From contig CAVSOU010000011.1 in assembly GCA_963729625.1 (NCBI GenBank), positions 384,001 through 448,000 on the forward strand: a stretch of 64,000 nucleotides of DNA. Reading direction: 5' to 3'. The stretch's first letter is position 1. Every line of letters begins with the position of its first letter. This DNA is from an uncultured bacterium. GTDB taxonomy: Bacteria > Chloroflexota > UBA5177 > JANWHV01. Positions 991 to 41,046 of the stretch are shown here, piece after piece. Position numbers and translations under genes: made by a program. The notes below the pieces were generated by a model that was not told where the DNA came from, made no database searches, and worked only from the letters and a program-made list of their open reading frames with translations.

Positions 991-2970
<1,980 letters not shown>

Positions 2971-2992
2971 GTGGACGACCCCCGATGCACAG

Positions 2993-3008
2993 TAGTACGT
3001 GTGTTCTA
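2993..3008. promoter_or_regulatory. Probable LexA (SOS) box upstream of uvrB
   Basis: TAGTACGTGTGTTCTA = TAGAAC-ACAC-GTACTA on the minus strand; matches the GAAC-N4-GTTC type box, 22 bp upstream of the uvrB start. Confidence 0.75.
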
Positions 3009-3106
3009 TCAACGTTGGCGTAGCACGTTGAACTGGAACGTTTGGGCTAGTTCATAGTGTACCGCACGGCTGGCCGCATTGCACGGACGGCCCCAAGAAC
3101 CCCACT

Positions 3107-3156
3107 TTGACAGCCCCGATCCACTCATGCTAGGATCTGCCCTGCACACGTGTTCA
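3107..3156 (+). promoter_or_regulatory. sigma70 promoter plus LacI-type operator for the iolE-like gene
   Basis: TTGACA (3107-3112), N18, TAGGAT (3131-3136) with extended-10 TG; operator TGCACACGTGTTCA at 3143-3156. Confidence 0.75.
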
Positions 3157-3200
3157 TGGCGTCGAAGCTTGCGCACGCAGCGCGGCAAGAAGGAAAATAT

Positions 3201-4097
3201 ATGTTTCGAGTGGCTAACGCACCGTGCTCCTGGGGTGTCATCGAGGGCATTGAAGGCGATCGCAATCAGTATCGACGGGTCCTGGATGAGATGCAGCAGA
3301 CCGGATTCAGTGGCACCGAGCTCGGCGATTGGGGCTTCATGCCGACCGACCCGGAGCGCCTGCGCGATGAGCTTCAGACACATGGTCTGGCCTTGATCGG
3401 CTCGTGGGTGAGCGTCTTCTTGCATGATGCCCTGCGACACGAGGAGAGCATCCGGGATGCCGTGCGTACCGCCCGGCAGCTGGCAACGGTGGGCGGCCCA
3501 GACTGCGTGATCGTTCTCGGCAACGATCCCTATGGGAACGCCGTGCGTACCAAGAATGCCGGACGCATCACGCCTGCCCTGTCGATGGACGATAGGACGT
3601 GGGAGCTGTTCGCGGGAGGCGCCTCTCGCCTGGCACGCAGTGTTCGCGACGAAACCGGCTTGCGCACAGTGTTCCACCATCACATAGGCACCTGGATCGA
3701 AACCGAGCAGGAGACGCGGCGCCTGCTGGATATGACCGATCCCGACCTGCTCGGGCTGTGCTTCGACACCGGCCATTGGCAGTTCGCCGGAGGCGATCCC
3801 GTGATGGCAATCCAGACGTATGCCGCACGAATCTGGCACGTTCATTTCAAGGACTGTGACCAGGATATCGCGGCACAATCGCATGCCGAGGAATGGGACG
3901 GCGTCACCTCCGTCGGTCACGGCGTGTTTTGCGAGCTCGGCAAAGGCGGCGTGCCTTTCCCAGCAGTGCGTGACTCACTGAAATCAGCCGGCTATCACGG
4001 ATGGATCGTGGTCGAGCAGGACATCCTTCCCGGCATGGGCACCCCCAAAGAGAGCGCTCAGCGCAACCGGGACTACCTGGCGTCTCTCGGTCTGTAG
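3201..4097 (+). CDS. iolE: Inosose dehydratase-like sugar-phosphate isomerase/epimerase TIM barrel (IolE/MocC family)
   Basis: [46 protein letters not shown] motifs; RBS AAGGA before ATG 3201. Confidence 0.8.
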
Positions 4098-4187
4098 TCG
4101 GTGAGGCGCGTCGCGAGCACGTTGACCCCTGCTTGCGACGCGCCCATTCTCATTGGATGGCCGGCGTTGGCTGGAAACTGAAGGAAT

Positions 4188-5219
4188 TCAGTCGGTTGTA
4201 ACTTCTTCGATCCGAATCGCGCGGCGCTCCTGAAGCGCGCGTCCTGCCGCCACCGCGACGCGCAGCGCCACGTAGCCATCCTCCACGCCAACGCACGGCG
4301 TGCTCCCGGTACGAACGCAGTCGACAAAATGCACTATCTCCGCCCGGAATGCCTCGGCAAAGCGATCGATGAAGAAGGCAACCTGCGCCAGGGCCTCTTC
4401 GTCCGGGCCAAGCACGGTCAGGCCCGGTCCGCCGGAGCCTTCCACGAACAGCGTCCCATCGGAACCATGCACCTCTGCACGAATGTCATAGCCGTGCACA
4501 GCCCTGCGACAATTGTCGACCATGCCCAAAGCGCCGCTCGCGAACTTCAGTGTCGTAATGGCAGTATCAACGTCGCCGATCTCTTTGATAGCAGGGTCGA
4601 CGAGCACCGAGCCTGTGGCGTAGACTTCTACCACGTCGGACCCAATCAGCCAGCGCGCCATGTCGTACTCGTGAATCGCTTGATCCTTGAACTGGCCGCC
4701 GCTGGACTTAAGGTAGGGTATCGGTGCGATGCGCGGGTCCCGCCCGACCAACCGCACCATCCACGGCGTGCCGATGTCGCCGCGCTGGATTGCCGCGTGC
4801 GCCTGCGCGAAGCCGGGATCGAACCTTCGATTGAAGCCAAGCTGCAGCAGTACCTTGCTCGCTTTCACCGCCTCTATCGCGGATTGGGTGGCCTGCAGGC
4901 TCTGGGCGACCGGTTTCTCGCACAGCACGTGCTTGCCGTGCCGCGCCGCCTCGACCATGAGTGCGGCATGTGTGTCCGTCGACGTTGCAATGATGACCCC
5001 GTCAACCGCCGGATCGTCCAGGATGGCTTCGAATCGATCGGTCGCCCATCCCTGTTCCGCTGTGGCCACCGCTCGCTGGGCCGAGGCGAGGTCGATATCC
5101 GCAACGGCGATCAGCTTCGCGCCCGGAACGTGGCGAGCCACATTGAGCGAATGGAGTGTGCCGATTCGTCCCGCACCAACAACACCAATGCCAATTACAC
5201 CTTGTTTCACCCTGACCAT
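4188..5219 (-). CDS. iolG: Inositol 2-dehydrogenase (Gfo/Idh/MocA family)
   Basis: GAGRIG Rossmann motif, CEKP, GFNRRFDP, RDP, SGGQFKDQAIHEYD, GYDIRAEVHG. Confidence 0.88.
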   Translation of the reverse strand: MVRVKQGVIGIGVVGAGRIGTLHSLNVARHVPGAKLIAVADIDLASAQRAVATAEQGWATDRFEAILDDPAVDGVIIATSTDTHAALMVEAARHGKHVLCEKPVAQSLQATQSAIEAVKASKVLLQLGFNRRFDPGFAQAHAAIQRGDIGTPWMVRLVGRDPRIAPIPYLKSSGGQFKDQAIHEYDMARWLIGSDVVEVYATGSVLVDPAIKEIGDVDTAITTLKFASGALGMVDNCRRAVHGYDIRAEVHGSDGTLFVEGSGGPGLTVLGPDEEALAQVAFFIDRFAEAFRAEIVHFVDCVRTGSTPCVGVEDGYVALRVAVAAGRALQERRAIRIEEVTTD

Positions 5220-5333
5220 CTCCTATTCTGTCACACGAACCACGTCGTTCATCCTCGCCCCGCGCAGGTGACACGCGCAACGGCGCGGCCATACACACAG
5301 AACACCAGGTTGTTCCAGCCGCGTAGGGGCGGA

Positions 5334-5371
5334 TCGCACCAAGCCGTTACGACCGTAACGGCTTGGTGCGA
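5334..5371. terminator. Perfect inverted repeat between the transaldolase gene and iolG
   Basis: TCGCACCAAGCCGTTACG-AC-CGTAACGGCTTGGTGCGA, 18-bp arms, 19 bp past the transaldolase stop; no U-tract, so it may be a processing or stability hairpin. Confidence 0.6.
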
Positions 5372-5390
5372 GCGGCGACGGCCCGCAGCA

Positions 5391-6491
5391 TCATCTAAGG
5401 TCCGGGTTAGGTAGCATCACGTCCCGGATTAGCGCATCCAGATCGGAACAGGCGGCGATAAACTGGCGCAGCGTTCGCGCGGTAGAGCCAAACGCATCAA
5501 AGTCTTCTACGGCAATGCCGTCTTCACTGTAGGCGCGCCGGAAATCGGCGAACTTTCCGAGCAGCTCGCCAACGACCTTCTCGTCGACAGGCGTGCTGAT
5601 TCGCGGCACGACCTCGACGTCGCTCGCATTGAAGCGAACCTGCCAGGAGTAGGGCGGCGAGATGACGACGTCTCCGCCAATGAACTCGCTCCAGTGCATG
5701 TGATTGCGGAACGCCGCGGACAGAAGGCGGATCCGGTATCCCCGCTCCTGGAAGATGCGGTACGCCTTCTTAAAGACGGCGACACCTGCCCACTCCAGAT
5801 AGCCAGGGTCGATCGCGATGTCTTCCTTGTCGATCAGCACCTTCAGCCAGTCGTCCAAACGTCCCACCATGATGGTGCACACCGGACCCATGGAGGCAAT
5901 GCTCAGACCCTCGCGCTCGCGGCGCTTCAGGCCGCGTTCCACTGCCTCGGCTACGGCGATGGCCTGTGGCAGCGTGAAGCTCACCGTGGCGTTGATGCTG
6001 ACTCCGCGGTAGGTAGCCTCCTCAATCGCGGGAATACCCGCGCAGGTCACCGGTATCTTCACGATCATGTTGGGCGCAAGCTGGCTGAAATGCACGGCCT
6101 GTTCCACGATCGCTTGCGTGTTTCGATACATCCTGGGATCCGTCTGAATGGAAAGCCGGCCATTGCGCCCGCCCTGCGCGTCGAAAATAGGCTTGAGCAG
6201 CGCCGCCGCCTTGGTAGAGACCTCTTCAACGACCTTCCACGCGACTTGGTCCTCGGTTGCCGTCGGCATCTCGTCGACAAGGGTCTGAATCCGCGGTCGC
6301 CACAGCGACATCTCCTTCTTCAGGACACCGAGCACAATCACCGGATTGCAGGTTGCGCCCACCGCGCCATGATCGATTGAGTACGTCAGCTCATTGATGG
6401 CCGCTGAGTCATTCCACAGACAAGTCTGAGTCGTTTGCGTCATCTGATGCAACGGACTCTTGAACGTTGTGACCGTGCTGGTTTGAGCCAT
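5391..6491 (-). CDS. Transaldolase-family protein (atypical active site)
   Basis: WNDS, GATCNP, Schiff-base lysine in IVKIPVT, INATVSF, MVGRLDD, AAFRN; start at ATG 6491 behind AGGAG (the ORF-track extension to 7271 overlaps lacI). Confidence 0.9.
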   Translation of the reverse strand: MAQTSTVTTFKSPLHQMTQTTQTCLWNDSAAINELTYSIDHGAVGATCNPVIVLGVLKKEMSLWRPRIQTLVDEMPTATEDQVAWKVVEEVSTKAAALLKPIFDAQGGRNGRLSIQTDPRMYRNTQAIVEQAVHFSQLAPNMIVKIPVTCAGIPAIEEATYRGVSINATVSFTLPQAIAVAEAVERGLKRREREGLSIASMGPVCTIMVGRLDDWLKVLIDKEDIAIDPGYLEWAGVAVFKKAYRIFQERGYRIRLLSAAFRNHMHWSEFIGGDVVISPPYSWQVRFNASDVEVVPRISTPVDEKVVGELLGKFADFRRAYSEDGIAVEDFDAFGSTARTLRQFIAACSDLDALIRDVMLPNPDLR

Positions 6492-6570
6492 GTAATTCTC
6501 CTGCGCTGAGTATCCCCTTATGCCTCTGGCGAGCCGGGACCCGCGGCACCCTGACAAACGTGCCACGGCG

Positions 6571-6619
6571 TGCACACGTGTGCAAGCAGAGTATAGTCCC
6601 GGACCGGTCGAGGCGTCAA
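6571..6619 (-). promoter_or_regulatory. sigma70 promoter plus perfect palindromic operator for transaldolase-iolG
   Basis: Minus-strand TTGACG (6619-6614), N18, TATACT (6595-6590); palindrome TGCACACGTGTGCA at 6571-6584. Confidence 0.75.
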
Positions 6620-6819
6620 GCCCTGCGCTGGACATGGTCGGCCGTTCAAATCGTGTACCAGGCACGTGGCAACGGGCCTTGGATCGCCGGGGACCCGCGT
6701 GCGGGTGTCCTGCCTGCCGGTCCGGCACATCAAGCACGAGCCGCCTTTGTGACCGTAGCGTCTGGTTCCAGCGTGCCGGCAGACGCAACGCATGGGTGCA
6801 CCGCCTAGCAACGCGGCGG

Positions 6820-6868
6820 TTGACACGCCGGAGCATCAGTGCTAGAATCCCTGGTGCACACGTGTTCA
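6820..6868 (+). promoter_or_regulatory. sigma70 promoter plus operator for lacI-mmsA
   Basis: TTGACA (6820-6825), N17, TAGAAT (6843-6848) with extended TG; operator TGCACACGTGTTCA at 6855-6868, identical to the copy at 3143. Confidence 0.8.
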
Positions 6869-6929
6869 TCGGTCTATCCGATGGCCTGCGATGTACCCGG
6901 CCCGGCCCACCCGCGTGAAGGTGATCGTC

Positions 6930-8012
6930 ATGAGTTCGGTGAAGCGCGTCTCGATCAAAGACATCGCGCGGTTGGCAAACGTGTCGCACCCCACGGTCTC
7001 TCGCGCTCTCCATCATAGTCCGTTGGTCAATCCCGAGACCGCGTGCAGAATCAGACGCATCGCCGCCGAGTCCGGCTACCGGCCGAGCGCCGTGGCTCGC
7101 AGTCTGGTCACCAGCCGAACGCGCACGATCGGCGTTGTGGTCACCACCATCGCCGATCCGTTCATCGCGGAAGTCGTCGCAGGGATCGAGGACGAGGCCA
7201 ATGCGCACGAATACTCCGTGTTCCTTGCCAATTCGAACGCCGACCCCCAACGCGAGATCAAAGCAGTGCATTCGTTTGAAGAGCGGCGCGTCGACGGCAT
7301 CATTGTCACAGCCTCGCGGGTGGGCGCGCTCTACGCTGACGTGCTGTCACAAATGCGCGTGCCCGTCGTATTGCTCAACAATGAGCATCCCAGCGAATTT
7401 GGCTATTCGGTGAGGATTGCCGACTTCGAAGCCAGCCGCCAGGCGGTCGGCTACCTCCTGAGCCTGGGCCACCGCCAGATTGCCTACATCGGCGACCGCT
7501 ACGGGCGTAGCTCAGACACGGAGCGATTCAGTGGCTACCGTGCCACGCTCGACGAAGCGGACATCCCGTTCCAGCCCGACCTCGTCGTGCATGGGGACGG
7601 CCAGCCCGAGGGCGGCGCTCGGGCAATGGCGAGACTGCTCGATCTCCCAGGACTGCCGACCGCCGTGTTCTGCTACAACGATATGACCGCGATCGGCGCG
7701 CTGAAGACGCTCCGCGCTCATGGAATCCAGGTGCCGTGGGATGTCTCGATGATTGGCTTCGATGACCTCTTCCTCGCCCAGTATGCGGAACCCGCGCTGA
7801 CCACCATCCGCCAACCGAAACACGAAATGGGTCGCCTGGGGATGGATACGCTGCTGAAACTGCTGAGCGGCGGCGATCCCGAGCAGAACGTCAAAGTACC
7901 TGGCGAGCTGATCGTGCGCCAATCGACCGCGCCACGCAGGAGCCAATCAACCGCACCGCACAAGGAGGCGAGTATGTCATTGCGGGTCGCGCAGCATGTG
8001 ACAGAAGATTAA
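6930..8012 (+). CDS. LacI-family transcriptional regulator
   Basis: N-terminal HTH SIKDIARLANVSHPTVSRAL; sugar-binding domain with AVFCYND, IGFDD, LTTIRQP. Confidence 0.95.
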   Translation: MSSVKRVSIKDIARLANVSHPTVSRALHHSPLVNPETACRIRRIAAESGYRPSAVARSLVTSRTRTIGVVVTTIADPFIAEVVAGIEDEANAHEYSVFLANSNADPQREIKAVHSFEERRVDGIIVTASRVGALYADVLSQMRVPVVLLNNEHPSEFGYSVRIADFEASRQAVGYLLSLGHRQIAYIGDRYGRSSDTERFSGYRATLDEADIPFQPDLVVHGDGQPEGGARAMARLLDLPGLPTAVFCYNDMTAIGALKTLRAHGIQVPWDVSMIGFDDLFLAQYAEPALTTIRQPKHEMGRLGMDTLLKLLSGGDPEQNVKVPGELIVRQSTAPRRSQSTAPHKEASMSLRVAQHVTED

Positions 8013-8099
8013 ACGCTGTCACGGCGAGGAGACCGGTCAAGCCGGTAGAGGATAACGGTTTCGTTGGTAATGGTAGGAAGACGTAGGGGAAAACGGTAA

Positions 8100-9608
8100 A
8101 TGAAGCGACTTATGTACTGCGTGGACAACGAGTGGATCGTCTCCAAGACCGGCAAGTACATGCCGGTGATGAACCCGAGCACCGGCGAGCAGATCGCGGA
8201 GGCGCCATGCTGCACGCAGGAGGAAGTGAATTCGGCGGTGGCCGCGGCCGCCCGAGCATTTCCCGCGTGGTCGAACACGCCAATCCCGGACCGCATTCAG
8301 CTGATGTTCCGCTTCAAGCAGCTGCTTGACCAGCACCTTGATGAGTTGACCCTGCTTCTTGCGACCGAGATGGGAAAGGTACTCAGCGAAGCGCGTGGAG
8401 ACGTGCTGAAGGCTATCGAGGTGGTCGAGTGTGCCTGTTCGACGCACTACCTGATGCAAGGCGACACCTGCATGAACGTGTCCAACGGCTACGACACGGT
8501 GTCGTACCGCGAGCCGATTGGCGTGTTTGTCGGCATCGCTCCATACAACTTCCCGGCCATGATCCCGCTCGGCTGGATGATCCCCTTCGCCATAACGACC
8601 GGCAACACCGTGGTCATGAAAGCTGCCTCCATGGTGCCGCAGACGGCGATGCAGATGGTCGATCTGTTGATCGAGGCAGGCATGCCCAGAGGCGTCGTCA
8701 ATATCCTTACCTGCAGCCGCGTTGAGGCGGACAGCCTGCTGACGCATCCCGATGTCAGGGGCATTACCTTCGTCGGCTCGACCTCGGTCGGGCTCCATAT
8801 CTTCAAAACCGCGTCGGCCGCCGGCAAGCGCGTCCAGTGCCTGACGGAGGCCAAGAACCACGCGCTCGTGCTTGAGGATTGCGTGCTGGAGCGGACGGTC
8901 AGGGGCATCGTCAACTCGACGTACGGCTGCGCCGGTCAGCGCTGCATGGCACTTCCCGCGTTGTGCGTGCAGGAGTCCATCGCCGAAAGGTTGGTCGAGC
9001 TTCTGGTGCGGTACGCGCGCGAGCTCAAGATTGGCCCGGCGTATCTGCCCGAGTCGCAACTCGGCCCCGTCGTATCCACCGGGCAGAAGGAGTGGATCGA
9101 GAAGTGCATCACGCGCGGTGTTGACGAGGGAGCGAAGTTAGTGTTGGACGGCCGCAACGTTGTGGTGCCGGGTTACGAGAACGGCTACTACGTCGGCCCG
9201 ACCATCTTCGACTACGTGCAACCCGGTCATTTCGTCGGTGACGAGGAAGTCTTCGGCCCAGTCACCAGCGTGAAGCGGGTCAAGGACTTCGAGGAAGGCC
9301 TCGCAATCATGAACGCGAACCGCTTCGCGAATGGCTCGTCCATCTATACGAGCTCCGGACGCCATGCTCGGGAATTCGCCAAGCGGACGCACGGCGGCAT
9401 GGTCGGCGTCAATGTCGGCATTCCCGTGCCGTTCTCGATCTTCCCGTTCTCCGGACACAAGCAGTCATTCTTCGGCGACCTGCACACGCTCGGCAAGGAC
9501 GGTGTCGCGTTCTTCACCGAGACCAAATCCGTCACGTCGGTATGGTTCACCGAGGAGGATTCCCTGAAAACGGTCAGCACCTGGGATGGCACGCTGACCC
9601 GTAACTAG
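8100..9608 (+). CDS. mmsA: CoA-acylating (methyl)malonate-semialdehyde dehydrogenase, IolA/MmsA paralog 1
   Basis: PYNFPAMIP, FVGST, AKNH, catalytic GCAGQRCMA, EEVFGPV, GVNVGIPVP, FFGDLH. Confidence 0.9.
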   Translation: MKRLMYCVDNEWIVSKTGKYMPVMNPSTGEQIAEAPCCTQEEVNSAVAAAARAFPAWSNTPIPDRIQLMFRFKQLLDQHLDELTLLLATEMGKVLSEARGDVLKAIEVVECACSTHYLMQGDTCMNVSNGYDTVSYREPIGVFVGIAPYNFPAMIPLGWMIPFAITTGNTVVMKAASMVPQTAMQMVDLLIEAGMPRGVVNILTCSRVEADSLLTHPDVRGITFVGSTSVGLHIFKTASAAGKRVQCLTEAKNHALVLEDCVLERTVRGIVNSTYGCAGQRCMALPALCVQESIAERLVELLVRYARELKIGPAYLPESQLGPVVSTGQKEWIEKCITRGVDEGAKLVLDGRNVVVPGYENGYYVGPTIFDYVQPGHFVGDEEVFGPVTSVKRVKDFEEGLAIMNANRFANGSSIYTSSGRHAREFAKRTHGGMVGVNVGIPVPFSIFPFSGHKQSFFGDLHTLGKDGVAFFTETKSVTSVWFTEEDSLKTVSTWDGTLTRN

Positions 9609-9630
9609 CCGGGCAGTCGACACGTCGCGA

Positions 9631-9663
9631 GGCAGCCCCGCACGCGGTCTCGGCGGGGCTGCC
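9631..9663. terminator. GC-rich hairpin between the convergent dehydrogenase genes
   Basis: GGCAGCCCCGC (9631-9641) and GCGGGGCTGCC (9653-9663) form an 11-bp inverted repeat. Confidence 0.55.
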
Positions 9664-9689
9664 GGACTACTCGCCCGCGACCGCGGCTA

Positions 9690-11159
9690 TTAGAACTTCC
9701 TGGACCATGCCTTGGGCCATCGCTCTATCACGACCTTCTTGTCCGTGTAGAACTCGACAGCATCGCGGCCTTGGGCATGGAGCGCGCCAAAGAAGCTGCC
9801 TTTCCATCCGCTAAATGGAAAGTATGCCATCGGGGCAGCCACGCCGATATTTACTCCCACATTTCCGGTTGGGACCACATTGCGAAACTTTCGCGCCGCG
9901 GCTCCGCTCGTCGTAAAGATTGAGGCAGCATTTCCGTAGGGGCTTCTCGCGAGCACATCTATCGCCTCGTCTATGTCCCTGGCGTGAATAAGGCTCAGAA
10001 CTGGCCCGAAGATCTCCGTTTCCGTCAGCTCGCTGGACGGTGCGAGACCGTCGACGATCGTCGGACCGACGAAATAGCCCTGATCGTACCCTGCAACCCG
10101 CGTGTCCCGGCCGTCTACGACGGGAACGGCGCCCTCGTGCTCTGCCTGTGCGATCAGTGAGCGAATGCGCGCTCCGCTCGCGGCGGTGATTACCGGTCCC
10201 ATCTGAGTGCCGTTGTCGAGCCCAAAGCCAACCTTGAGTGATTCCGCGGCCTGGGCAATTGACCTGGTAAACCACGAGCGAGCGTCTCCGACGGTCACGG
10301 CGACCGACACGGCGAGACAGCGTTGACCGGCGCATCCGAACGCGCTGTCCGCAATGACTTGCTTGGTCGTCTCGGGATCAGCATCGGGTAGCACCACCAC
10401 GTGATTCTTGGCTCCGCCCTGGCACTGTACGCGCTTCCCATTGCCGGCGGCTCTCGCGTAGATATATCGCGCTACCGGCGACGATCCGACGAAACTCATT
10501 GCCTGCACGTCGGGGTGATCGAGCAGCGCGTCCACGGCCACCTTGCCGCCATTGACGAGGTTCACGATGCCCTTCGGCAGCCCCGTCTCCTCGATAAGCT
10601 CTACGATGCGCATCATCGTGAAAGGCACGCGATCGGATGGCTTGACGACAAGCGTGTTGCCACAGGCGATTGCGTAAGGAAGAAACCACAGTGGAATCAT
10701 GGCGGGGAAGTTGAAGGGCGTGATTTCCGCGACCACGCCCAGCGGCTGTCGGATCATCGTCTCGTCGATACCGCGTGCCACGTCCTCGAGGTTGTATCCC
10801 TGCATCAGCGTCGGAATGCCACACGCAACCTCGACATTCTCGATTCCCCGGCGAAGCTCGCCACGTGCCTCGGCAAGGGTCTTGCCGTTTTCTACCGTGA
10901 TACCTCGCGATATCTCGTCAAAATGCTCCTCGAGCAACTGCTTGAGGCGGAACAGGTATTGGATGCGCTCGGGCGCTGGCGTGAGGCGCCACTCCGGAAA
11001 TGCTCTCGCGGCCGCCGCGACTGCCGCGGCGACATCCTCAACACTGCCGACCGGCGAGCGTCCCAGTAGCTCGCCCGTCGCTGGATTACGCACTTCCACG
11101 CCGGCCTCGGATGACGGCGTGCGCCAGGCGCCATCGCTATAGTCGCGAACCTCGGTCAT
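9690..11159 (-). CDS. mmsA: CoA-acylating (methyl)malonate-semialdehyde dehydrogenase, paralog 2
   Basis: [47 protein letters not shown]; strong RBS AAAGGAGG. Confidence 0.92.
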
Positions 11160-11752
11160 GCGTGTTGCGCCTCCTTTCCCGCTTTATTGAAATGCTGCGG
11201 CCAACCCGCCGGCCGGTAATGATCTTGTTGCTATTCGCTCGCGGAGGCTCATCGGGGCGGTGCACGTCGCTTCGCCATTCTCTGGTCGGCGAAGCGGACA
11301 CGCGCGTGACCAGTACGGGCATGCACATCTTGGAGATGATCCCTTGACAACGCATCTGGCGACCGCCTGAAGCCGAACCGGGAGATGTCGCAGCCTCTCA
11401 GGATCGAAAGCCCGCCTTGCTGGCTGCGACCTCCGCGGTCCGTGGGCTGGTCCTGCCGCGCTCAGCGACTGTTCTTCCAGGTTAACACGACCAAGGTTAG
11501 GCCGCTGAGCAGGGTACGCAGCGAGGGCGTCCCTTGAAAAGTAATCGACGACGACCTGCAGTGCGGTAGATCAAGAAGTCGGCACGTCGTCGTTCCAATC
11601 GGCTTCTGCATTTGATCCGTCACTTTCAGGTCGCGGCGGCATTCTCTGTTTGAGGAGAGAAATCGCTTTCCCACTGCCCGATGGGGGATGGTGGTCAGCA
11701 CCCAACCTGTTACACTTTCGAAAGAGCCACCCGTCTGCGGGCAGGGTACACA

Positions 11753-12553
11753 ATGGATTCGTTGCGCTGGACACTGTCACGACTGGATCTGGCAAGTGCG
11801 CTGGATATCGCGATTGTCACACTTGTCTTTTTCTGGTTCCTCGTACTGACCTATCAGACGCGTGCGGACCAGGTGCTGCGTGGTATTGCCGTGCTCGTCA
11901 TTGCCTGCGCGGTACTGGCATCGACCCTCCAGTTGAGCGTGCTTGGATGGTTGGTGGTGCATTCCTTTCCCGTTCTCGTCATTGCCATCCCGGTCATTTT
12001 CCAGCCTGAGCTGCGACGGCTTTTGGAGCAGGTCGGTCGCACAAGCAGGATCATCAATCACCCGCTCGCCTCGCTTGGTGCGCCCGCGGCCGACCTCACC
12101 GTCGGCCAGATCGTCGCGGCATGCGAACACCTTTCGCAGCAGTTGTTTGGCGCCCTGATCGTGCTGGAGCGTAAGACCGGCTTGCAGGACTACGTTGCTA
12201 CCGGCACCAGGCTCGAGGCTACCGTTTCCTTCGAGCTGTTGGAGGCCATATTCTTCAAGAATGCCGCGCTGCACGACGGTGCAGTCATTATTCAGGGCGA
12301 TCGCGTGGTGGCCGCGAAGTGCGTTCTGCCCCTGAGCGAGAATGAGGGCAGCGCCGCGCACATGGGCACGCGCCATCGCGCCGCCATCGGTATCACGGAA
12401 GTTACGGATGCGGTGGCTGTCGTGGTTTCGGAAGAGACTGGCACGATTTCCATGGCGGTGAATGGCAAGCTCGTCCGCGGCCTGACCGGAGATCGACTCC
12501 GGCGTATGCTGATGGCCTTCTATCGTGCGGAGGAGCTGCAGGTGGTATCGTAG
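11753..12553 (+). CDS. cdaA: Diadenylate cyclase CdaA
   Basis: Three N-terminal hydrophobic helices, IFQPELRR, catalytic LHDGA and GTRHRAA, VVSEETG. Confidence 0.95.
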   Translation: MDSLRWTLSRLDLASALDIAIVTLVFFWFLVLTYQTRADQVLRGIAVLVIACAVLASTLQLSVLGWLVVHSFPVLVIAIPVIFQPELRRLLEQVGRTSRIINHPLASLGAPAADLTVGQIVAACEHLSQQLFGALIVLERKTGLQDYVATGTRLEATVSFELLEAIFFKNAALHDGAVIIQGDRVVAAKCVLPLSENEGSAAHMGTRHRAAIGITEVTDAVAVVVSEETGTISMAVNGKLVRGLTGDRLRRMLMAFYRAEELQVVS

Positions 12554-26747: not shown

Positions 26748-28103
26748 TCAGACCATCGACTCCACTTCGTGCAGCGCCTTTCCGAGTATCGACACGATGC
26801 GGTCAGCCTGTTCGATGGTGAGCACAAGGGGCGGCGACAGGATGATGCAGTCGTTATCCGACCGGCAGAGCAACCCTAGTTTGGTGGCACGGTCACGCAC
26901 TTTGACGCCGATTTCCTGATCGGGATCGAAGCGCTGCCCACTGGCCTTGTCCCGCACCAACTCAATACCGAGCAGCAAGCCCTTGCCACGCACTTCTCCG
27001 ACCAAGGGTGACACCAGCAGCTGCTGCAACTGGTCAAGCAAGTGCTGCCCGACCCGCGCCGCGTTCTCGACCAACCCTTCGCGCTCAATGATGTCGAGGT
27101 TCACGAGCGCGGCCTGACAACCCGCGGGATGGCCGGAAAAAGTTTGGCCGTGCTGGAAGTACTGACCGCGGAACGTCTCCGCTATAGCGCGGGTAGTGAT
27201 CGTAGCGGAAATAGGCTGGTACCCGCTCGAAAGGCCCTTGGCCACCGTCATGATATCGGGAGTCACGCCCCAGTGCTCACACGCGAACATCTTGCCGGTC
27301 CGTCCAAAGCCTGTGAGCACTTCGTCGATGATCAGCAGGATGCCATGTCTGTCGCAGATCTCTCGCACACGCGGGAGATAATCATCCGGTGGAATGACCA
27401 CGCCGAGAGCGGCCATGATCGGGTCCACAATGATTGCCGCGATGGTCTCTGGACGCTCGAACTCGATGGCCTCCTCTATGGCCCGAAGGGGAGCATCGCA
27501 GCAGGTCTCATGCTGCGTGCGATAGCGGCAGTGTGTGCAGTCTGGCGGTGTAACATGGATAAAGCCGGGGACCATCGGCTCGAAGGGCGCGCGGCGCAAC
27601 GGGACGCCCGTCGCACTCAGGGCGCCCATCGTCACGCCGTGGAACGCACCCTTGCGGCTGATGATTTTGGTACGGGCGCGCTGGCCCCGAATGCCGTGGT
27701 ACTGGCGGGCTATCTTGATAGCGACTTCAACAGCCTCGGATCCACTATTGGTGAAGTTCACCACATTGAGGGCACCCGGACAAATCGCCGCGAGCCGTGT
27801 TGCCAGCTCAATAGCGGGTGGGTTGGCAAATCCAAAAAGCGAATAGAAATCGAGTGTGCGCAGTTGAGCGCCTACGGCGTCGGCAATCTCCGTGCGACCA
27901 TGCCCGACCTGAGTGGTAAACAGTCCGGCCAGTCCATCAATGTATTCGCGGCCCTGCACATCGCGGACAATGGCTCCATGCCCTTCGGCAATGACATACA
28001 GGCCGCGCTCTTGAATGCGCTGCATATCGGTGAATTGCAACCAAAGATGCTCGACTGCCAGCTCTTGCAGAGACGGGGCTGTTGGCTCCATTGATGTGGT
28101 CAT
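26748..28103 (-). CDS. Class III PLP-dependent aminotransferase
   Basis: YIDGLAGL, NSGSEAVE, FHG.T, DEVLTGFGRTG, PDIMTVAKG, HGQTFSGHP. Confidence 0.93.
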   Translation of the reverse strand: MTTSMEPTAPSLQELAVEHLWLQFTDMQRIQERGLYVIAEGHGAIVRDVQGREYIDGLAGLFTTQVGHGRTEIADAVGAQLRTLDFYSLFGFANPPAIELATRLAAICPGALNVVNFTNSGSEAVEVAIKIARQYHGIRGQRARTKIISRKGAFHGVTMGALSATGVPLRRAPFEPMVPGFIHVTPPDCTHCRYRTQHETCCDAPLRAIEEAIEFERPETIAAIIVDPIMAALGVVIPPDDYLPRVREICDRHGILLIIDEVLTGFGRTGKMFACEHWGVTPDIMTVAKGLSSGYQPISATITTRAIAETFRGQYFQHGQTFSGHPAGCQAALVNLDIIEREGLVENAARVGQHLLDQLQQLLVSPLVGEVRGKGLLLGIELVRDKASGQRFDPDQEIGVKVRDRATKLGLLCRSDNDCIILSPPLVLTIEQADRIVSILGKALHEVESMV

Positions 28104-28223
28104 GGCGACTACACTCCTTTGCCTGTACCTGCGACTGCTCCGCAGCGCCGAGCGGCAACCGCGGGCCTCGGGGATTTGATTGGGCGCGGAAACTCGCCGG
28201 TCACCCAGACACCATACGCTTCG

Positions 28224-28295
28224 TGTAGATCATTTGCATCGAGAAATCAATTACACGCATGGTGTATCCTAATCCCGCACGTTTCACACTGTCAA
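28224..28295 (-). promoter_or_regulatory. sigma70 promoter with tandem LacI-type operators
   Basis: Minus-strand TTGACA (28295-28290), N18, TAGGAT (28271-28266); then TGTAATTGATTTCT (28255-28242) and TGCAAATGATCTACA (28238-28224). Confidence 0.65.
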
Positions 28296-28363
28296 GTCGC
28301 TGGAAGGTGGTGACGTGGTCGCGTGTCGTGCCTGGCCCGCCGAAAGCGCGGCCCGCCGGCCCC

Positions 28364-29404
28364 TTATGTGAGAACGGCTGCAGGAGGAGGCGCGCAGGAG
28401 TCGCGAACTACTAGCCGCGGCGGCAGCGTGATGATATGCCTGCTGGGGCGGCCCTCCTTGATCTGATTCAGCAACAAGCCGACCGACTCTCGACCGATGC
28501 CCGCTTTGTCGGTTGCCACGGTAGTCAGTCGGGGGCTAAGGAATGAAGCGATCAATGTATCGTCGAAGCCCAGCACGCTCAAGTCTGCAGGTATTGCCAG
28601 GCCGCGTTCCTGCGCGGACCGATAAGCGCCCATAGCCATCAGATCACTATAGGTAACGATCGCGGTCGGCCGCGGCCCGTCGAGCAGAGTGCCGCTCACC
28701 GCATAGGCCCCTTCAACGGTGACCTCAGCATGAACCAGCAGATCGTCGCGCCGGAGGCCGGCTTCCTCTGTCGCCCGCAGATAGGCGGCGATCATGCGCG
28801 GATTGGGCAGCAGCTCGGGCGGCGCGGCGATAAAGGCGACCGCCCGATGACCAAGGCCGATCAGGTATTTTGTAGCGTCGTAGATGCCGGAGTCGGGCTC
28901 CGTGAGCACGGCACTGACGCGGGCGTATGGTTCCACCTCAGTATCCATCAGGACAAAGGGCACTTCACGATGAGTGAGTAGCTTGATCGCCTTGCGAGGA
29001 ATGCCTGCCGCCATGAGCAGCACACCATCGACATGGCGGCGAACCAAATCCAACAAAAGCCGCTCCTCGCGGTCGCGACTATAATCGGAGTCGCAGAGTA
29101 CAAGATTGTAGCCGGCCTCCGCAGCCACGCGCTGCGCAACCTTCGTGATCTCGGCATAAAAGGGGTTGGCAATATCAGGGACAACCAGTCCAATTGTCAG
29201 TGTTTCATTGGTTCGCAGAGCACGGGCCAGCACGTTCGGCTCATAATCAAGTGCGACCATTGCTTCCCGCACGCGCGACGCTGTGGCCTCGGTAATGGCG
29301 CGGTTGCCGGCAAGTACGCGCGACACAGTCGCCACGGACACTCCAGTAGCGTCCGCGACATCCTTCAAGGTCACCTTGCTGTTCCAGCGACGTTTCGCTC
29401 GCAT
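28364..29404 (-). CDS. LacI-family transcriptional regulator
   Basis: HTH TLKDVADATGVSVATVSRVL, NPFY, LGFDD, LTTV; start 29404 or 29410. Confidence 0.95.
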   Translation of the reverse strand: MRAKRRWNSKVTLKDVADATGVSVATVSRVLAGNRAITEATASRVREAMVALDYEPNVLARALRTNETLTIGLVVPDIANPFYAEITKVAQRVAAEAGYNLVLCDSDYSRDREERLLLDLVRRHVDGVLLMAAGIPRKAIKLLTHREVPFVLMDTEVEPYARVSAVLTEPDSGIYDATKYLIGLGHRAVAFIAAPPELLPNPRMIAAYLRATEEAGLRRDDLLVHAEVTVEGAYAVSGTLLDGPRPTAIVTYSDLMAMGAYRSAQERGLAIPADLSVLGFDDTLIASFLSPRLTTVATDKAGIGRESVGLLLNQIKEGRPSRHIITLPPRLVVRDSCAPPPAAVLT

Positions 29405-29445
29405 GTCCATCCCCTGCTGCCGCGCTGCAACCTTCAAGACGCGGG

Positions 29446-29515
29446 TTGACAAGCAATCCTTGATAGTATATCGTACGACTGCGGTGTAATGGATTGCATG
29501 GTGCAAAGGACTGCA
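29446..29515 (+). promoter_or_regulatory. sigma70 promoter with tandem LacI-type operators
   Basis: TTGACA (29446-29451), N17, TATCGT (29469-29474); TGTAATGGATTGCA (29485-29498) and TGCAAAGGACTGCA (29502-29515). Confidence 0.7.
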
Positions 29516-29521
29516 AGCACG

Positions 29522-30859
29522 ATGATAGACGCCACTGAAGTGCTCCCAAATATCTCGGAAGAAGATCTTCGCGCAGGACAGCGCGCGCTTATGAGCGGCT
29601 GGACACCGGATGAAAAACCGCTGGTGATGGTGCGCGGTAAAGGATCGTTTCTCTGGGACAGTGCAGGTAGGCGCTACCTTGACTGCATCTCGCAGGCCTG
29701 GAGTCTCAACGTCGGTCACTGCCACCCACGCGTTCTTGCCGCGGCTGAGCGTCAGGCCCGCGAGATCACCCAGGTTCGCAGTAACTACGGCAATGCCCCT
29801 ACACTCCTGCTTGCGAAACGGCTCGCCGAGCTCACTCCCGGGAAACTCAAGCGTTTCGCCTTTTCCTTGCACGGCAGCACGGCGGTTGAGACGGCGATAA
29901 AGCTGGCGATGATCAATCGTCCCGGCGGTGGAGCCTTCATCACCCTGTACGATGGCTACCATGGTCGCACGATGGCCACGATGGCGCTGAGCTGGCCGCA
30001 CCCGAACAACCGCTTCGCCGCGTTTCAGCGGGATTCTGTGCGCGTCCCTCAGGCCTATTGCTATCGGTGTCCCTTACACCTGCAGTACCCATCGTGCGGC
30101 ATTGCATGTGCGGAGCTCGTGCGGGATACCATTCGCCACGCGGTTACCGGCAAGCCCACAGCCCTCGTCATGGAGCCCATTCAGGGTAACGGCGCACAGC
30201 TCGACTTTCCTCGGGAGTATCTCCATGCTATTCGCCAGATCTGCGATGAAGAAGGTGTGCTGCTGATTTGGGATGAGATTCAAACAGCGTTCGGGCGCAT
30301 CCCAGCCATGTTTGCCGCCGACTACTATAGCGTGGTGCCCGACATCATGGTGTTCGGCAAAGCGCTGGGCGGCGGTTACCCACTTGCTGGGGTAGCAGTC
30401 CGGAATGATCTGACGGAGTTTGCGGCTGGCGAAGATGCGCTGACGTTTGGGCACTTCCCTGTCTCGGCCGCCGCCGCGCTCGCGACACTCGATATCCTCG
30501 AGGAAGAGGGAGTGTTCGAAAACTGTGCAAAGCAAGGCGCGTACATCACTGCCAAGTTGCTTGAGCTGCAAGAACACTATCCCTTGATCGGCAACGTACG
30601 TGGACCCGGTCTGGCGATTGGAATCGAGCTGGTGCGCGATCGTCAGACCAAGGAACCGGCGCGGGAAGAGGCGCATGCGTTCTACGAGCTGGGCATGGAG
30701 CGAGGTGTAATCTTTGGGACCACCCGTTATGCTGGACTCGGCAACGTCGTCAAGATCAAGCCACCGGCGACGATTACGCGCGAGGAAGCGGACCTGGCGC
30801 TGGCGGCCTTCGAGGACGTATTGAAGGAAGTGTCGAAGCACAGTGTTGCGCGCCATTAG
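29522..30859 (+). CDS. Class III PLP-dependent aminotransferase
   Basis: YLDCISQ, HGSTAVE, YHGRT, EPIQG, DEIQTAFGR, PDIMVFGKALGGG; start trimmed to lie downstream of the operators. Confidence 0.92.
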   Translation: MIDATEVLPNISEEDLRAGQRALMSGWTPDEKPLVMVRGKGSFLWDSAGRRYLDCISQAWSLNVGHCHPRVLAAAERQAREITQVRSNYGNAPTLLLAKRLAELTPGKLKRFAFSLHGSTAVETAIKLAMINRPGGGAFITLYDGYHGRTMATMALSWPHPNNRFAAFQRDSVRVPQAYCYRCPLHLQYPSCGIACAELVRDTIRHAVTGKPTALVMEPIQGNGAQLDFPREYLHAIRQICDEEGVLLIWDEIQTAFGRIPAMFAADYYSVVPDIMVFGKALGGGYPLAGVAVRNDLTEFAAGEDALTFGHFPVSAAAALATLDILEEEGVFENCAKQGAYITAKLLELQEHYPLIGNVRGPGLAIGIELVRDRQTKEPAREEAHAFYELGMERGVIFGTTRYAGLGNVVKIKPPATITREEADLALAAFEDVLKEVSKHSVARH

Positions 30860-31159
30860 TCCGACGGAATAGGGCCCCAACATGCGTGCGGGCCCCGCGT
30901 TGCTCTCTCGCTTGAGTGCCGTACCTCAAGGAACGGAGGTGCCGAAAGCCCAGCGGCCCTTGCGTGCGTTGCGTGTAGTCGTTGCCGATACGTGCACGGC
31001 AGTGCGTGCAACAATGGGTAGGATGCGGAAACCCGGTTCGCTGATGCTTCATAGCGGCACCCGAGCGTGTCGTCGGGGAAGGAGGTGAAGTCAGGCAACA
31101 GGCATCCATCCACCTCTCAGATTTATGACACGGAAATACTGAAGGAGAAGCGCTTCAAG

Positions 31160-32581
31160 ATGGAAAAGCGGGAACCATTGATCGTCGATCCTTTCGTTTC
31201 GCGACTGCGCTTTCTGCAGCTCACAGCTGCAGGCATGGCGGGTGCGGCGGTGGCCTCAGCTGGGCTCGGTTCTTTGCCTGCATTCGCCGCCGGCAAGCCC
31301 TACGCCGGGGTCACCCTCAACTTTATTGGTGAGGCGACGACGCAAACCGACGTGATTAAGGCGCTCTTGCCCCAGTTCACGCAGCAAACCGGTATTAGCG
31401 TAAATATCGAAGAAGCTCCGTACGACAGCGTCGTCCAGAAAGAGATCCTCGACTTCACGACGCATCGTGCGTACTACGATGTCGAGTCTATGCCCTATGA
31501 ATATCTAGGCACGTACGTCGACCGCGGGTACATCGTGCCTGTTGATACGTACCTGGCCAACACGGGCTTGACGCCCGCGAGCTTCGACAAAGCAGACATT
31601 ATCAGCAAGCTATGGAACGCGGCTTCGAACTGGAAAGGCAAGTTCTACGGCTTTCCTTCCGAGAGCCCGGTCATGATGATGTTCTACCGGAGCGATCTCT
31701 TCAGCAATCCGATCGAGCAGCGTGCTTTCCATGCTCGCTATGGCTATAACCTTGCTCCGGCCAAGACATGGGCCCAGTATCAGGACATCGCGGCCTTCTT
31801 CACCCGCCAGAAGGGCCAGTCGCTGGCCGGCAAGACCTTGAGCCAGAATTTTTATGGCCTGGCGATGACCGGCAAGCGGCATCTTGCTACGGTGTGCGAG
31901 TGGCTGAACTACGCGTGGTCATTCGGCGGAGGAATTTTTGACCAGCACGGTAACCTCATCCTCAACTCCGCTGCGAACAAGCAGGCGCTCAACTACTGGG
32001 TCGGCCTGACCAAGTTCGCTCCTCCAGGCTACACCACCTATACGTGGGACGAGGTTACTTCTGCGATTCAGCAGAGTACAGTCGCGCAGGCCATCCAGTG
32101 GGGCGACACTGCGTCAGCCGCCGAAGATCCCACGCAATCCAAGGTCACGGGGAAGCTTGGCTTTGCAGACATTCCGGCCATGAAGGCCGGGGGCAAAGTT
32201 GTCGCTCACTACGGCGGGTGGTCGTACGTGATTAACAAGGATTCGGCACATCCCGAGGCGGCCTACCTCTTCATGTTGTGGGCCTCGTCCAAGTCGACGC
32301 AACTTCAGCTGTCGCAGCGTGGAGGCCTGCCTGCCCGCATTTCTGTGTTCAAGGACCCAGCGCTAGGTACCAAGCTGCCATACTGGAATCAGGAGCTGCG
32401 CTCCCTCTCTATCAGTACGTCCCGCCCTCGTATCGCGCAGTGGGGCGAGCTCGCATCCACCCTGCAGCTGACGCTCTCGCAGATATTGAGCCACGAGGTA
32501 TCCGTGGACTCGGGTCTGCAACAGGCGCAAGCGACGCTTTCCAGCCAGCTCAAGAGTGTGTTGCCGGTTTCTTACCAGTAG
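31160..32581 (+). CDS. Carbohydrate ABC transporter (CUT1) substrate-binding protein
   Basis: Tat-like leader SRLRFLQ plus hydrophobic stretch and AFA cleavage site; FTQQTGI, MFYRSDLF, GGWSY; followed by permeases. Confidence 0.9.
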   Translation: MEKREPLIVDPFVSRLRFLQLTAAGMAGAAVASAGLGSLPAFAAGKPYAGVTLNFIGEATTQTDVIKALLPQFTQQTGISVNIEEAPYDSVVQKEILDFTTHRAYYDVESMPYEYLGTYVDRGYIVPVDTYLANTGLTPASFDKADIISKLWNAASNWKGKFYGFPSESPVMMMFYRSDLFSNPIEQRAFHARYGYNLAPAKTWAQYQDIAAFFTRQKGQSLAGKTLSQNFYGLAMTGKRHLATVCEWLNYAWSFGGGIFDQHGNLILNSAANKQALNYWVGLTKFAPPGYTTYTWDEVTSAIQQSTVAQAIQWGDTASAAEDPTQSKVTGKLGFADIPAMKAGGKVVAHYGGWSYVINKDSAHPEAAYLFMLWASSKSTQLQLSQRGGLPARISVFKDPALGTKLPYWNQELRSLSISTSRPRIAQWGELASTLQLTLSQILSHEVSVDSGLQQAQATLSSQLKSVLPVSYQ

Positions 32582-32724
32582 CCATCTTCCCGGGGGCGCC
32601 TCAGACGTACCTGATCGCCCCTGTTCTCGAGTTCGAATGCCTCCCGCCGCCTGGAGATGCTCGGTGACGAGCATCTCCAGGGGCGGGAGGCACGGTAAAT
32701 CGACGATCACCCCATGAGGGCCAA

Positions 32725-33714
32725 ATGGGATACGGGGATAGCAACCTTCGGCAGCCAGGTGACCATGCGCCGTCTGCTGACGGCCCGAGTGCGGTGGCCG
32801 GCACATTTACCGCGCGCCGAACGCGAGTATCGCGCAATCTGCGCACCGCGCTGCTGTTCCAGGTGCCGATGCTGGTGGTTCTGGTCTCGATCACTATCGT
32901 GCCCCTTATTTACGGAGCAAACCTGAGCCTGCGCTCCTATAGCATGGTGCTACCGGACATGACAGGCCAGTGGGTTGGCCTGGCAAACTTCCAGCGCATG
33001 CTCCACGATGGCGATTTCTGGCACTCGCTGGCCTTGACCGCGATCTATGTCGGCGTAGGCGTGTCGATCCAGCTAGTGGCTGGCCTTGCCATGGCCCTGC
33101 TGCTGCATGCTCTGGACGCCGGGCGCGGCATAGTCCTGACGCTGCTCATGCTGCCGATGGTAGTCGCACCGCTTGTCGTCGGCTTGATGTTTAGCTTTCT
33201 CTGCAACGCTCAGTTTGGCCTGCTCACGTGGCTGATACAGATAACGCACCTTCCGTTGCCGCAGGGACTGCTTGGCGATCCGTCCACGGCGCTCCCGGTG
33301 CTGATACTCACGGACATCTGGGAATGGACGCCGTTCATGATCCTGATGTTGCTCGCGGGACTGCAGTCCATGCCGACCGAGCCGTTCGAAGCCGCGCGCT
33401 GTGACGGCGCGGGCAGCTGGGACACGCTGCGGTATCTGACGCTGCCTCTGCTGAAACCGTTCATTATGGTTGCCGTGCTGTTCCGATCCGTCGACGCACT
33501 GAAGGAATTTGACAAGGTCTATATCCTCACCGGCGGCGGTCCAGGGACGGCGACGGACCTGATCGACCTCTTCACCTATCGCACGGCATTTCTGAACTGG
33601 GACATGAGTTATGGGGCTGCACTCGGCATGGTCCTATTCGTGATCTCGATGATTGCAGCCAGTATCTTCCTCTTCGTCTTGCGTCGCCAGGAGCGAGAGA
33701 GTGCCAAGTCATGA
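32725..33714 (+). CDS. Carbohydrate ABC transporter permease
   Basis: WVGLANF, WEWTPF, EAA..DGA EAA loop, LTGGGPG. Confidence 0.93.
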   Translation: MGYGDSNLRQPGDHAPSADGPSAVAGTFTARRTRVSRNLRTALLFQVPMLVVLVSITIVPLIYGANLSLRSYSMVLPDMTGQWVGLANFQRMLHDGDFWHSLALTAIYVGVGVSIQLVAGLAMALLLHALDAGRGIVLTLLMLPMVVAPLVVGLMFSFLCNAQFGLLTWLIQITHLPLPQGLLGDPSTALPVLILTDIWEWTPFMILMLLAGLQSMPTEPFEAARCDGAGSWDTLRYLTLPLLKPFIMVAVLFRSVDALKEFDKVYILTGGGPGTATDLIDLFTYRTAFLNWDMSYGAALGMVLFVISMIAASIFLFVLRRQERESAKS

Positions 33715-40812: not shown

Positions 40813-41046
40813 GCGGGCCAGTGCTCACCGTCCTGTGGTCTGACCGACATGCACGGTACCATAGAGGAAGTGGCACATGGACGCGCGTATCGCGCGGCCT
40901 GAATTGTGGAACGACTAAGATGCCCAGCTTTCGGCCCGAGGCCCACGGTGTCGAGACCGGTGTTGCCTGGCGCACCAGCCGGATAGCTCCGACAGCGGGC
41001 GGCCGGCAACGGCGTGTGTGGCTTTGAGGGCTACGGGAGGTCCGTG

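Follow-up and report, generated by a model that had tools for sequence, protein, structure and literature searches.

A transaldolase-family enzyme as a candidate replacement for IolC and IolJ in bacterial inositol breakdown

How is inositol broken down by a bacterium whose recognisable inositol genes include neither the kinase IolC nor the aldolase IolJ? This question is raised by a cluster of six genes at positions 3201-11159 of a 64-kb stretch of DNA from an uncultured Chloroflexota bacterium (hereafter the window, in whose coordinates positions are given unless a contig or locus is named). The cluster combines an iolE-like gene, iolG, an atypical gene of the transaldolase family (tal), a lacI-type gene and two genes of the mmsA/iolA type (Table 1). 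In the classic route of inositol catabolism, IolC phosphorylates 5-dehydro-2-deoxy-D-gluconate (DKG) and IolJ cleaves the product, which gives dihydroxyacetone phosphate (DHAP) as one of the aldolase products. An earlier note on this DNA suggested that the transaldolase may take the place of both enzymes. Our results, above all those from comparative genomics, give strong support to this reading: tal is clustered with iol genes and shares an operator with them, a relative is fused to IolE, and the distribution of the gene is almost perfectly complementary to that of iolC.

The explanation as a whole, which we hold with slightly more confidence than doubt, is a LacI-controlled version of the myo-inositol pathway. 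The steps from inositol to DKG would be carried out by IolG, the IolE-like dehydratase, IolD and IolB. The Tal-family enzyme would form a Schiff base between its Lys145 and DKG without prior phosphorylation, and would split the bond between C3 and C4. Malonate semialdehyde would be released and oxidised to acetyl-CoA by MmsA/IolA, and the enzyme-bound dihydroxyacetone unit would most likely pass to glyceraldehyde-3-phosphate, giving fructose-6-phosphate. A LacI repressor would control the iolE-like gene, tal-iolG and lacI-mmsA via a single palindromic operator. Numbered from the keto end, DKG is equivalent to 5-deoxy-D-fructuronate, and its C3 and C4 have the D-threo configuration of fructose. 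No other intermediate of the pathway, to our knowledge, has a free CH2OH-CO-CHOH-CHOH end and could serve as donor for an enzyme of the transaldolase or fructose-6-phosphate aldolase (FSA) type. The transfer route would save no net ATP, since fructose-6-phosphate still costs one ATP at phosphofructokinase.

Distribution of tal among inositol gene clusters

Profile scores confirm the gene content of the cluster as it had been read in the earlier note, and profile searches likewise found no iolB, iolC, iolD or iolJ within the window. In the rest of the host genome (an assembly of 5.4 Mb in 21 contigs, 87% complete), iolB (287 bits, cut-off 205) and iolD (920 bits, cut-off 715) are neighbours on contig C14, preceded by a gene for an IclR-type regulator. 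The canonical-pathway proteins above their model cut-offs in this genome are IolG, IolD, IolB and IolA/MmsA. No iolC reached its cut-off in the 87%-complete assembly, where the best match scored 226 bits against 300, and a Cgl0159-type aldolase had no match there either. This best match is a solitary PfkB gene on contig C8, which was rejected as IolC because of its score below the cut-off, its about equal score as a fructokinase and its context.

Aldolases of other types are present in the host. Class II aldolases are encoded on contigs C7 and C10, and no iol-related seeds were found near the one on C7. A DUF2090-like gene occurs once, at a distance of 146 kb from the window, and its neighbours are a ribokinase-like PfkB gene and a gene for a RuBisCO-like protein. 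None of these candidates for a DKG-6-phosphate aldolase, class II or DUF2090-like, lies near a copy of the operator described below. The cluster of DUF2090-like, PfkB and RuBisCO-like genes (C11:594500-598600; L021:8495-12538) adjoins corrinoid methyltransferase genes and probably belongs to a separate, sugar-acid pathway.

The iolE-like gene probably encodes an inosose dehydratase, as judged from its sequence. All three IolE-like paralogues of the host score 207-217 bits, below the TIGR04379 cut-off of 290. Canonical acidobacterial iolB-iolC-aldolase-iolD clusters carry IolE-like genes that are 41-42% identical to that of the window and likewise below the cut-off, and the window LacI is 66% identical to the LacI encoded directly ahead of iolB in one such cluster (L122). 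Hence, the iolE-like gene and lacI of the window are plausibly true parts of an inositol pathway. The two other paralogues (217 and 209 bits; C17:233275-238261 and C11:126408-129935) adjoin genes for Gfo/Idh/MocA oxidoreductases and LacI-type genes, and these loci probably represent additional clusters for cyclitols or sugars.

Relatives of tal were confirmed in genome contigs (n = 518), and gene neighbourhoods were taken from the best 80 loci. These are mostly from metagenome-assembled genomes (MAGs) of Acidobacteriota, with four loci from Spirochaetaceae and one each from Chloroflexota, Methylomirabilota and Verrucomicrobiia; the Chloroflexota locus matches a same-genus relative of the window organism. 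We searched within 10 kb on either side of each tal homologue by tblastn, with the host's own proteins as seeds. Hits were obtained with the iolG-like seed in 65 of the 80 loci, and with the iolE-like, iolD and iolB seeds in 59, 53 and 50 loci, respectively. The mmsA seed had hits in 16 loci, with a median identity of 66% to the second mmsA. Two PfkB seeds and the DUF2090-like seed had no hits in any of the 80 loci, and a class II aldolase seed had hits in one. A kinase of any kind was absent from the recurrent neighbours of the tal homologues. The enrichment of this transaldolase clade near iol genes, as expected in the earlier note, was thus borne out.

The recurrent gene order starts on one strand with an outer-membrane receptor, a zinc-dependent alcohol dehydrogenase (Zn-ADH), the iolE-like gene, iolG, tal, a DegT aminotransferase, a GFO oxidoreductase and lacI, and continues on the opposite strand with an APC transporter, iolD and iolB, followed by mmsA. 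In clustered gene calls, 12 of the 80 loci lacked all five core families, and 7 of these 12 loci were shorter than 20 kb. In several genomes tal directly adjoins iolB, the position that iolC occupies in canonical clusters.

The genes for the DegT aminotransferase (27 of the 80 loci), a Gfo/Idh/MocA oxidoreductase (29) and the Zn-ADH (29) accompany the cluster in, for instance, L039, L040, L042 and L059. In the approximately 30 loci that have them, they are located between tal and lacI. The Zn-ADH is weakly similar to the scyllo-inosose 3-dehydrogenase IolM. Possibly, this trio adds an entry branch for aminocyclitols (inosamines) or other inositol isomers.

An independent link is provided by the protein P0128 (655 residues), in which a genuine IolE (341 bits, cut-off 290) is fused to a Tal-like domain that is 44% identical to the window Tal. 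Its nearest genomic relative is encoded in a MAG of Elusimicrobiota, where the genes line up as iolG (461 bits), iolB-like, iolD (913 bits), iolE (388 bits) and Tal-like.

If Tal replaces IolC, genomes with one should lack the other. Genomes behind 50 of the 80 loci were searched, chosen by list order and locus length before any result was available. None of the 50 contained iolC, even at E ≤ 1e-45, whereas iolD was found in 43 (in 40 of them over its cut-off). Of the 7 Tal-bearing genomes without iolD, 6 contain a DhaK domain, versus 5 of the 43 with iolD; this skew may be taxonomic in origin, or the enzyme may be used differently.

Among 301 evenly sampled genomes of Acidobacteriota, 6 had the Tal clade (at least 65% identity) and 22 had iolD over its cut-off, 11 of the latter together with iolB over its cut-off. 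Of these 11 genomes, 5 have Tal but lack iolC, and the other 6 lack Tal but have iolC, which adjoins iolD. The other 11 'IolD-positive' genomes had neither iolC nor Tal. IolD homologues at L105, L106 and L107 (genomes G093, G141 and G245) score 812-911 bits against the TIGR04377 cut-off of 715, but have no iol neighbours, and an IolD homologue stood alone in three of the four inspected loci of iolB-negative genomes. It may be that TIGR04377 over-calls IolD, or that solitary IolD homologues have another role. Because of these solitary homologues in genomes without iolB, iolD alone was rejected as a marker of the pathway, and iolB, or iolB plus iolD, was adopted.

With this marker, a larger sample of 401 genomes of the class Terriglobia was searched. 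The iolB scores were bimodal, with true IolB at 248 bits or more. A second, IolB/KduI-like family at 175-230 bits straddles the TIGR04378 cut-off of 205, and therefore the count of 80 of the 401 genomes 'over cut-off' mixes two families. True IolB was found in 48 genomes, and two that were flagged as unpublished were left out. Among the remaining 46 genomes, with the Tal clade set at 56% identity or more, 21 had Tal without iolC over its cut-off, 23 had iolC over its cut-off without Tal, 2 had neither and none had both. Fisher's exact test gave p = 7e-11, or 1e-8 if two genomes with a near-cut-off kinase (G461 and G523) are counted as having both, and relatedness among the genomes makes both values overstate the case. 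The gene between iolC and iolD in canonical acidobacterial clusters encodes a Cgl0159-like aldolase. Of the 23 iolC genomes, 15 had this aldolase, but none of the 21 Tal genomes and neither of the two remaining genomes did. The anti-correlation with iolC that the earlier note had anticipated was found both in the Tal-bearing set (iolC in 0 of 50) and in the class sample (both genes, with iolC over its cut-off, in 0 of 46).

An alternative explanation might be that Tal serves another cyclitol or sugar-acid branch, acting for instance on a ketose produced by neighbouring TIM-barrel isomerases, SDRs or the aminotransferase, and that the kinase and aldolase for DKG are encoded elsewhere in the genome and have escaped recognition. 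This would agree with the absence of iolD from 7 of the 50 Tal-bearing genomes, and with the Spirochaetaceae loci, which pair tal with AP_endonuc_2 proteins and ABC transporters only. The DegT, GFO and Zn-ADH genes of the acidobacterial clusters have no assigned role, and the PfkB and DUF2090-like pair in the host could be taken as such a kinase and aldolase. Yet, we regard this alternative, including an independent fate of DKG, as improbable. It would leave unexplained why tal is fused to a genuine IolE, why it stands beside iolB where canonical clusters have iolC, and why it is almost perfectly complementary to both iolC and the Cgl0159 aldolase, with both types in 0 and neither in 2 of the 46 genomes. 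Moreover, DKG is the sole ketose of the pathway, as far as we know, with an end suited to this enzyme family.

Other contexts of tal were also found. In Bryobacterales loci without iolD (L063:8327-11954 and L068), tal forms an operon with mmsA and an SDR gene, which ties tal to malonate-semialdehyde dehydrogenase even in the absence of ring-opening enzymes. The SDR resembles glucose-1-, gluconate-5- and KduD-type dehydrogenases, and this operon may provide another way of making a ketose acid from which malonate semialdehyde is formed. A more distant representative (P0143, 42% identical) found no related loci when used as query, and an alignment of 16 diverse representatives contained no stretch conserved enough to serve as a search seed.

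Sequence conservation differs strongly between tal and its neighbours. Across the loci, the median identity to the window proteins is 76% for Tal, 33-56% for the neighbours and 66% for the second mmsA. Tal is 72-79% identical between the window organism, Acidobacteriota, Spirochaetaceae and Verrucomicrobiia, whereas the adjacent IolG, IolE-like protein and LacI are only 33-37% identical. This points to an unusually strong constraint or to a recent horizontal spread of tal alone. Within the lineage of the window organism, tal occurs in three of four same-genus genomes but in none of 36 other relatives, which suggests horizontal acquisition.

Active site and proposed reaction of the enzyme

The window Tal matches PF00923 well above the gathering score of 27 (Table 1), but falls below the cut-offs of all eight NCBIfam models for Tal and FSA. 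The best of these is PRK03343 (115 bits, cut-off 367), and the FSA model TIGR00875 gives 36 bits (cut-off 246). Thousands of close relatives are 77-88% identical, and most of them are unnamed or annotated as 'transaldolase family protein'. At E ≤ 1e-3, a library-wide search returned 4512 relatives; with the threshold tightened to E ≤ 1e-30, the Gln/Met subfamily described below comprised 404 representative clusters.

An AF2 model built from an alignment of 41 sequences (pLDDT 95.6) was compared by Foldseek with the structures 3clm, 7oey, 7bbx and 3r5e, and gave TM-scores of 0.79-0.83 at 20-22% identity. Residues were compared through alignment to 3r5e, 3clm and the host's canonical transaldolase, which is encoded on contig C7. 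The Schiff-base residue is Lys145. Its motif, IVKIPVT, corresponds in the alignment to VKIP/IKVP in 3r5e and 3clm, and the lysine is invariant in the 41 subfamily sequences. In addition to Lys145, the active-site positions Asp28, Asn49, Thr169, Arg211 and Arg262 are retained. By contrast, the catalytic Glu of transaldolases is replaced by Gln116, in all subfamily members but one, the Phe by Met208, and one Ser by Ala. The canonical transaldolase on C7 has Glu and Phe in the columns of Gln116 and Met208. We take these columns to correspond to Glu96 and Phe178 of TalB, a numbering that is consistent with the titles of the PDB entries 4rz5 and 4rz6 (TalB E96Q and E96Q F178Y), which mark the position of the switch from Tal to FSA. 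A C-terminal residue, Tyr321, is nearly invariant and specific to the subfamily.

These replacements bear on the simplest alternative, that Tal is an ordinary transaldolase of the pentose phosphate pathway which is co-regulated with the inositol genes by happenstance. Membership of PF00923 and the fold would fit, the latter with TM-scores of 0.79-0.82 to the transaldolase of N. gonorrhoeae and 0.80-0.81 to that of C. glutamicum. However, the catalytic Glu and Phe are replaced across the subfamily, none of the eight model cut-offs is reached, and the host already encodes a canonical transaldolase, so that the window tal is an extra paralogue. The presence of tal in three of four same-genus genomes and none of the 36 other relatives, and its tight tie to iol genes, do not suit a housekeeping role in the pentose phosphate pathway either. 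We therefore consider this alternative very improbable.

A more serious alternative is a DKG aldolase that works without phosphorylation, in the manner of FSA. It would hydrolyse the Schiff base, set free dihydroxyacetone along with malonate semialdehyde, and leave the phosphorylation of the former to a dihydroxyacetone or glycerol kinase. The clustering and complementarity would fit such an enzyme equally well. Gln116 replaces the Glu of transaldolases, as in FSA, the acid/base residue could be supplied by Tyr321, and the host genome contains three DhaK genes. Nevertheless, the position of the catalytic Tyr of FSA is occupied by Met208, a DhaK domain occurs in just 5 of the 43 Tal-bearing genomes with iolD, and the recurrent neighbours of tal include no kinase. 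We consider an FSA-type aldolase rather unlikely, and favour transfer to glyceraldehyde-3-phosphate because of the missing Tyr, the scarcity of DhaK and the conservation of Arg211 and Arg262, which presumably correspond to the phosphate-binding residues of TalB.

Several observations weigh against the favoured explanation as a whole. The Gln that replaces the catalytic Glu is also found in fructose-6-phosphate aldolase, and therefore a true transfer mechanism is not assured. The neighbourhood evidence covers the best 80 of the 518 relatives, and members that are only 30-35% identical, in four genomes, are not in iol contexts, although one of them has mmsA at a distance of 1 kb. In the seven Tal-bearing genomes without iolD, tal stands in other sugar contexts. 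G461 and G523 carry Tal together with an IolC-like kinase just under the cut-off (285 and 271 bits, respectively, against 300). The comparison genomes are mostly MAGs, and related genomes are not independent of each other, so that the p-values are too favourable. The host assembly itself is 87% complete, and it carries three IolE-like paralogues, the three DhaK genes and the PfkB and DUF2090-like pair 146 kb away.

More broadly, we tentatively suggest that the Gln/Met subfamily represents an unrecognised catalytic class of the Tal/FSA superfamily, which would cleave non-phosphorylated ketoses with a carboxylate tail and of which the inositol route would merely be the first recognisable case. 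Such enzymes may use a Gln-based active site, perhaps in combination with Tyr321. If true, this class would open shorter routes that need no kinase in several pathways for sugar acids and cyclitols.

Operator, promoters and other features of the window

The palindrome TGCACACGTGTKCA occurs at three sites in the window, where 0.05 copies are expected by chance, and the observed number was reached in none of 100 shuffled sequences. Each copy sits directly downstream of one sigma-70-like promoter, and a scan of positions 2900-11800 yielded only these three promoters. The shared operator thus defines a regulon that consists of the iolE-like gene, tal-iolG and lacI-mmsA, and LacI is presumed to bind to the three sites. 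The common operator that the earlier note saw at these three promoters is thus confirmed. The second mmsA has no operator-like site upstream within four mismatches (region 11100-11720) and hence is not visibly part of the regulon.

Beyond the three sites, no copies with at most one mismatch were found in the whole 5.4-Mb assembly, and neither iolC nor iolJ was found under the same operator elsewhere. Two-mismatch sites number 20 genome-wide; of the 9 inspected, most are intragenic and none adjoins an iol-type gene. The region ahead of iolB and iolD on C14 contains no operator-like site within three mismatches. A related perfect palindrome, TGCAGACGTCTGCA, has two copies 94 bp apart (C11:492785 and C11:492879) upstream of a gene at 492971, and a different regulator of the LacI type probably uses this pair as its operator.

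Some gene boundaries differ from the open reading frames. The iolE-like reading frame starts at 3150, yet the ATG at 3201 stands behind a ribosome-binding site (AAGGA). For iolG, the true start is possibly the in-frame GTG at 5210, behind AGGAGA. The gap of 171 bases between tal and iolG contains a hairpin that is not followed by a T-run and was not called by the terminator scan, and for this reason co-transcription of the two genes can only be inferred. The hairpin could be an element for RNA stability or processing. Two further gene groups of the window, listed at the end of Table 1, showed no link to the iol regulon.

Table 1. Features of the window, with strand and supporting scores
Feature	Position	Strand	Profile score or match	Remarks
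iolE-like gene, xylose-isomerase-like TIM barrel	3201-4097	+	PF01261, 91 bits; TIGR04379, 207 bits (below cut-off 290)	
iolG, inositol 2-dehydrogenase	4188-5219	-	TIGR04380, 389 bits (cut-off 355)	
Hairpin, 23-bp stem, 2-nt loop	5329-5376	-	91% complementary	between tal stop codon and iolG
tal, atypical transaldolase-family gene, 366 aa	5391-6491	-	PF00923, 124.7 bits	
lacI, LacI-family repressor gene	6891-8012	+		probable start 6931; presumed binder of the three operators
mmsA/iolA, CoA-acylating (methyl)malonate-semialdehyde dehydrogenase	8100-9608	+	TIGR01722, 545 bits (cut-off 448.5)	downstream of lacI
Second mmsA/iolA paralogue	9690-11159	-	TIGR01722, 585 bits (cut-off 448.5)	
Promoter of iolE-like gene, sigma-70-like, TTGACA-18-TAGGAT	3107-3136	+	10/12 matches	
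Operator copy O1, TGCACACGTGTTCA	3143-3156			at predicted transcription start of iolE-like gene
Operator copy O2, TGCACACGTGTGCA	6571-6584		perfect 14-bp palindrome	at tal-iolG transcript start
Promoter of tal-iolG, sigma-70-like, TTGACG-18-TATACT	6590-6619	-	promoter scan	
Promoter of lacI-mmsA, sigma-70-like, TTGACA-17-TAGAAT	6820-6848	+	11/12 matches	
Operator copy O3, TGCACACGTGTTCA	6855-6868			lacI-mmsA promoter region
Two class-III aminotransferase genes with ABC sugar-type transporter	26748-34538			
FGGY kinase gene, then G6PD and OpcA genes	39223-43966			

Relation to known systems and significance

The proposed Tal would occupy the same position in the pathway as IolC plus IolJ, or plus an aldolase of the Cgl0159 or DUF2090 type, in B. 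subtilis and C. glutamicum. Cleavage of DKG by a transaldolase-type mechanism would cut the same carbon-carbon bond as IolJ, and Tal would deliver the same malonate semialdehyde to IolA/MmsA. It differs in that a single Schiff-base enzyme of an unrelated family would act on an unphosphorylated substrate, and in the fate of the C3 unit, which appears as DHAP in the classic route but would become fructose-6-phosphate (or free dihydroxyacetone) here.

A similar logic is known from the 6-deoxy-6-sulfofructose transaldolase of sulfoquinovose catabolism, which transfers the dihydroxyacetone unit of an anionic fructose analogue without a phosphate tail to glyceraldehyde-3-phosphate and releases a C3 acid aldehyde. 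By analogy, the window Tal would do the same with a carboxylate on a 5-deoxy carbon in place of the sulfonate tail. The enzyme BmSF-TAL (PDB 8bc3) belongs to another subfamily, however. Its chain is about 220 residues long, and its match to the window Tal is confined to residues 105-181 of the latter (77 residues, E = 1.8e-6). Classical and long transaldolases (E. coli TalB, 3clm and 3r5e) have the TIM-barrel fold and the positions of Lys, Asp, Asn, Thr and Arg in common with it, but have Glu, Phe and Ser where the window Tal has Gln, Met and Ala. FSA resembles the window Tal in having Gln where transaldolases have Glu; it differs by its catalytic Tyr, where the window Tal has Met, and by its length of about 220 instead of 366 residues.

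Within the full-text literature covered, which does not extend to subscription journals, we found no description of a transaldolase step in inositol catabolism. A large survey of iol clusters (PMC9430895) defined a cluster by the presence of three out of the set iolB, iolC, iolD and iolE, and the passages of its text that were consulted make no mention of 'transaldolase' or 'Acidobacteria'.

Our results indicate that the Tal variant of the known inositol pathway is apparently common in soil Acidobacteriota. Soils hold a large carbon pool in the form of myo-inositol, which is released from phytate and lipids, and genome surveys detect its breakdown through the genes iolB to iolE. If our explanation is true, 21 of the 46 inositol pathways in the sampled Terriglobia genomes would use an enzyme that is annotated merely as 'transaldolase family protein'. 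The active site of this enzyme, a Tal-family site without the canonical Glu and Phe, would then call for a mechanistic explanation, and the transaldolase shortcut known from sulfoquinovose catabolism would be a more general strategy.

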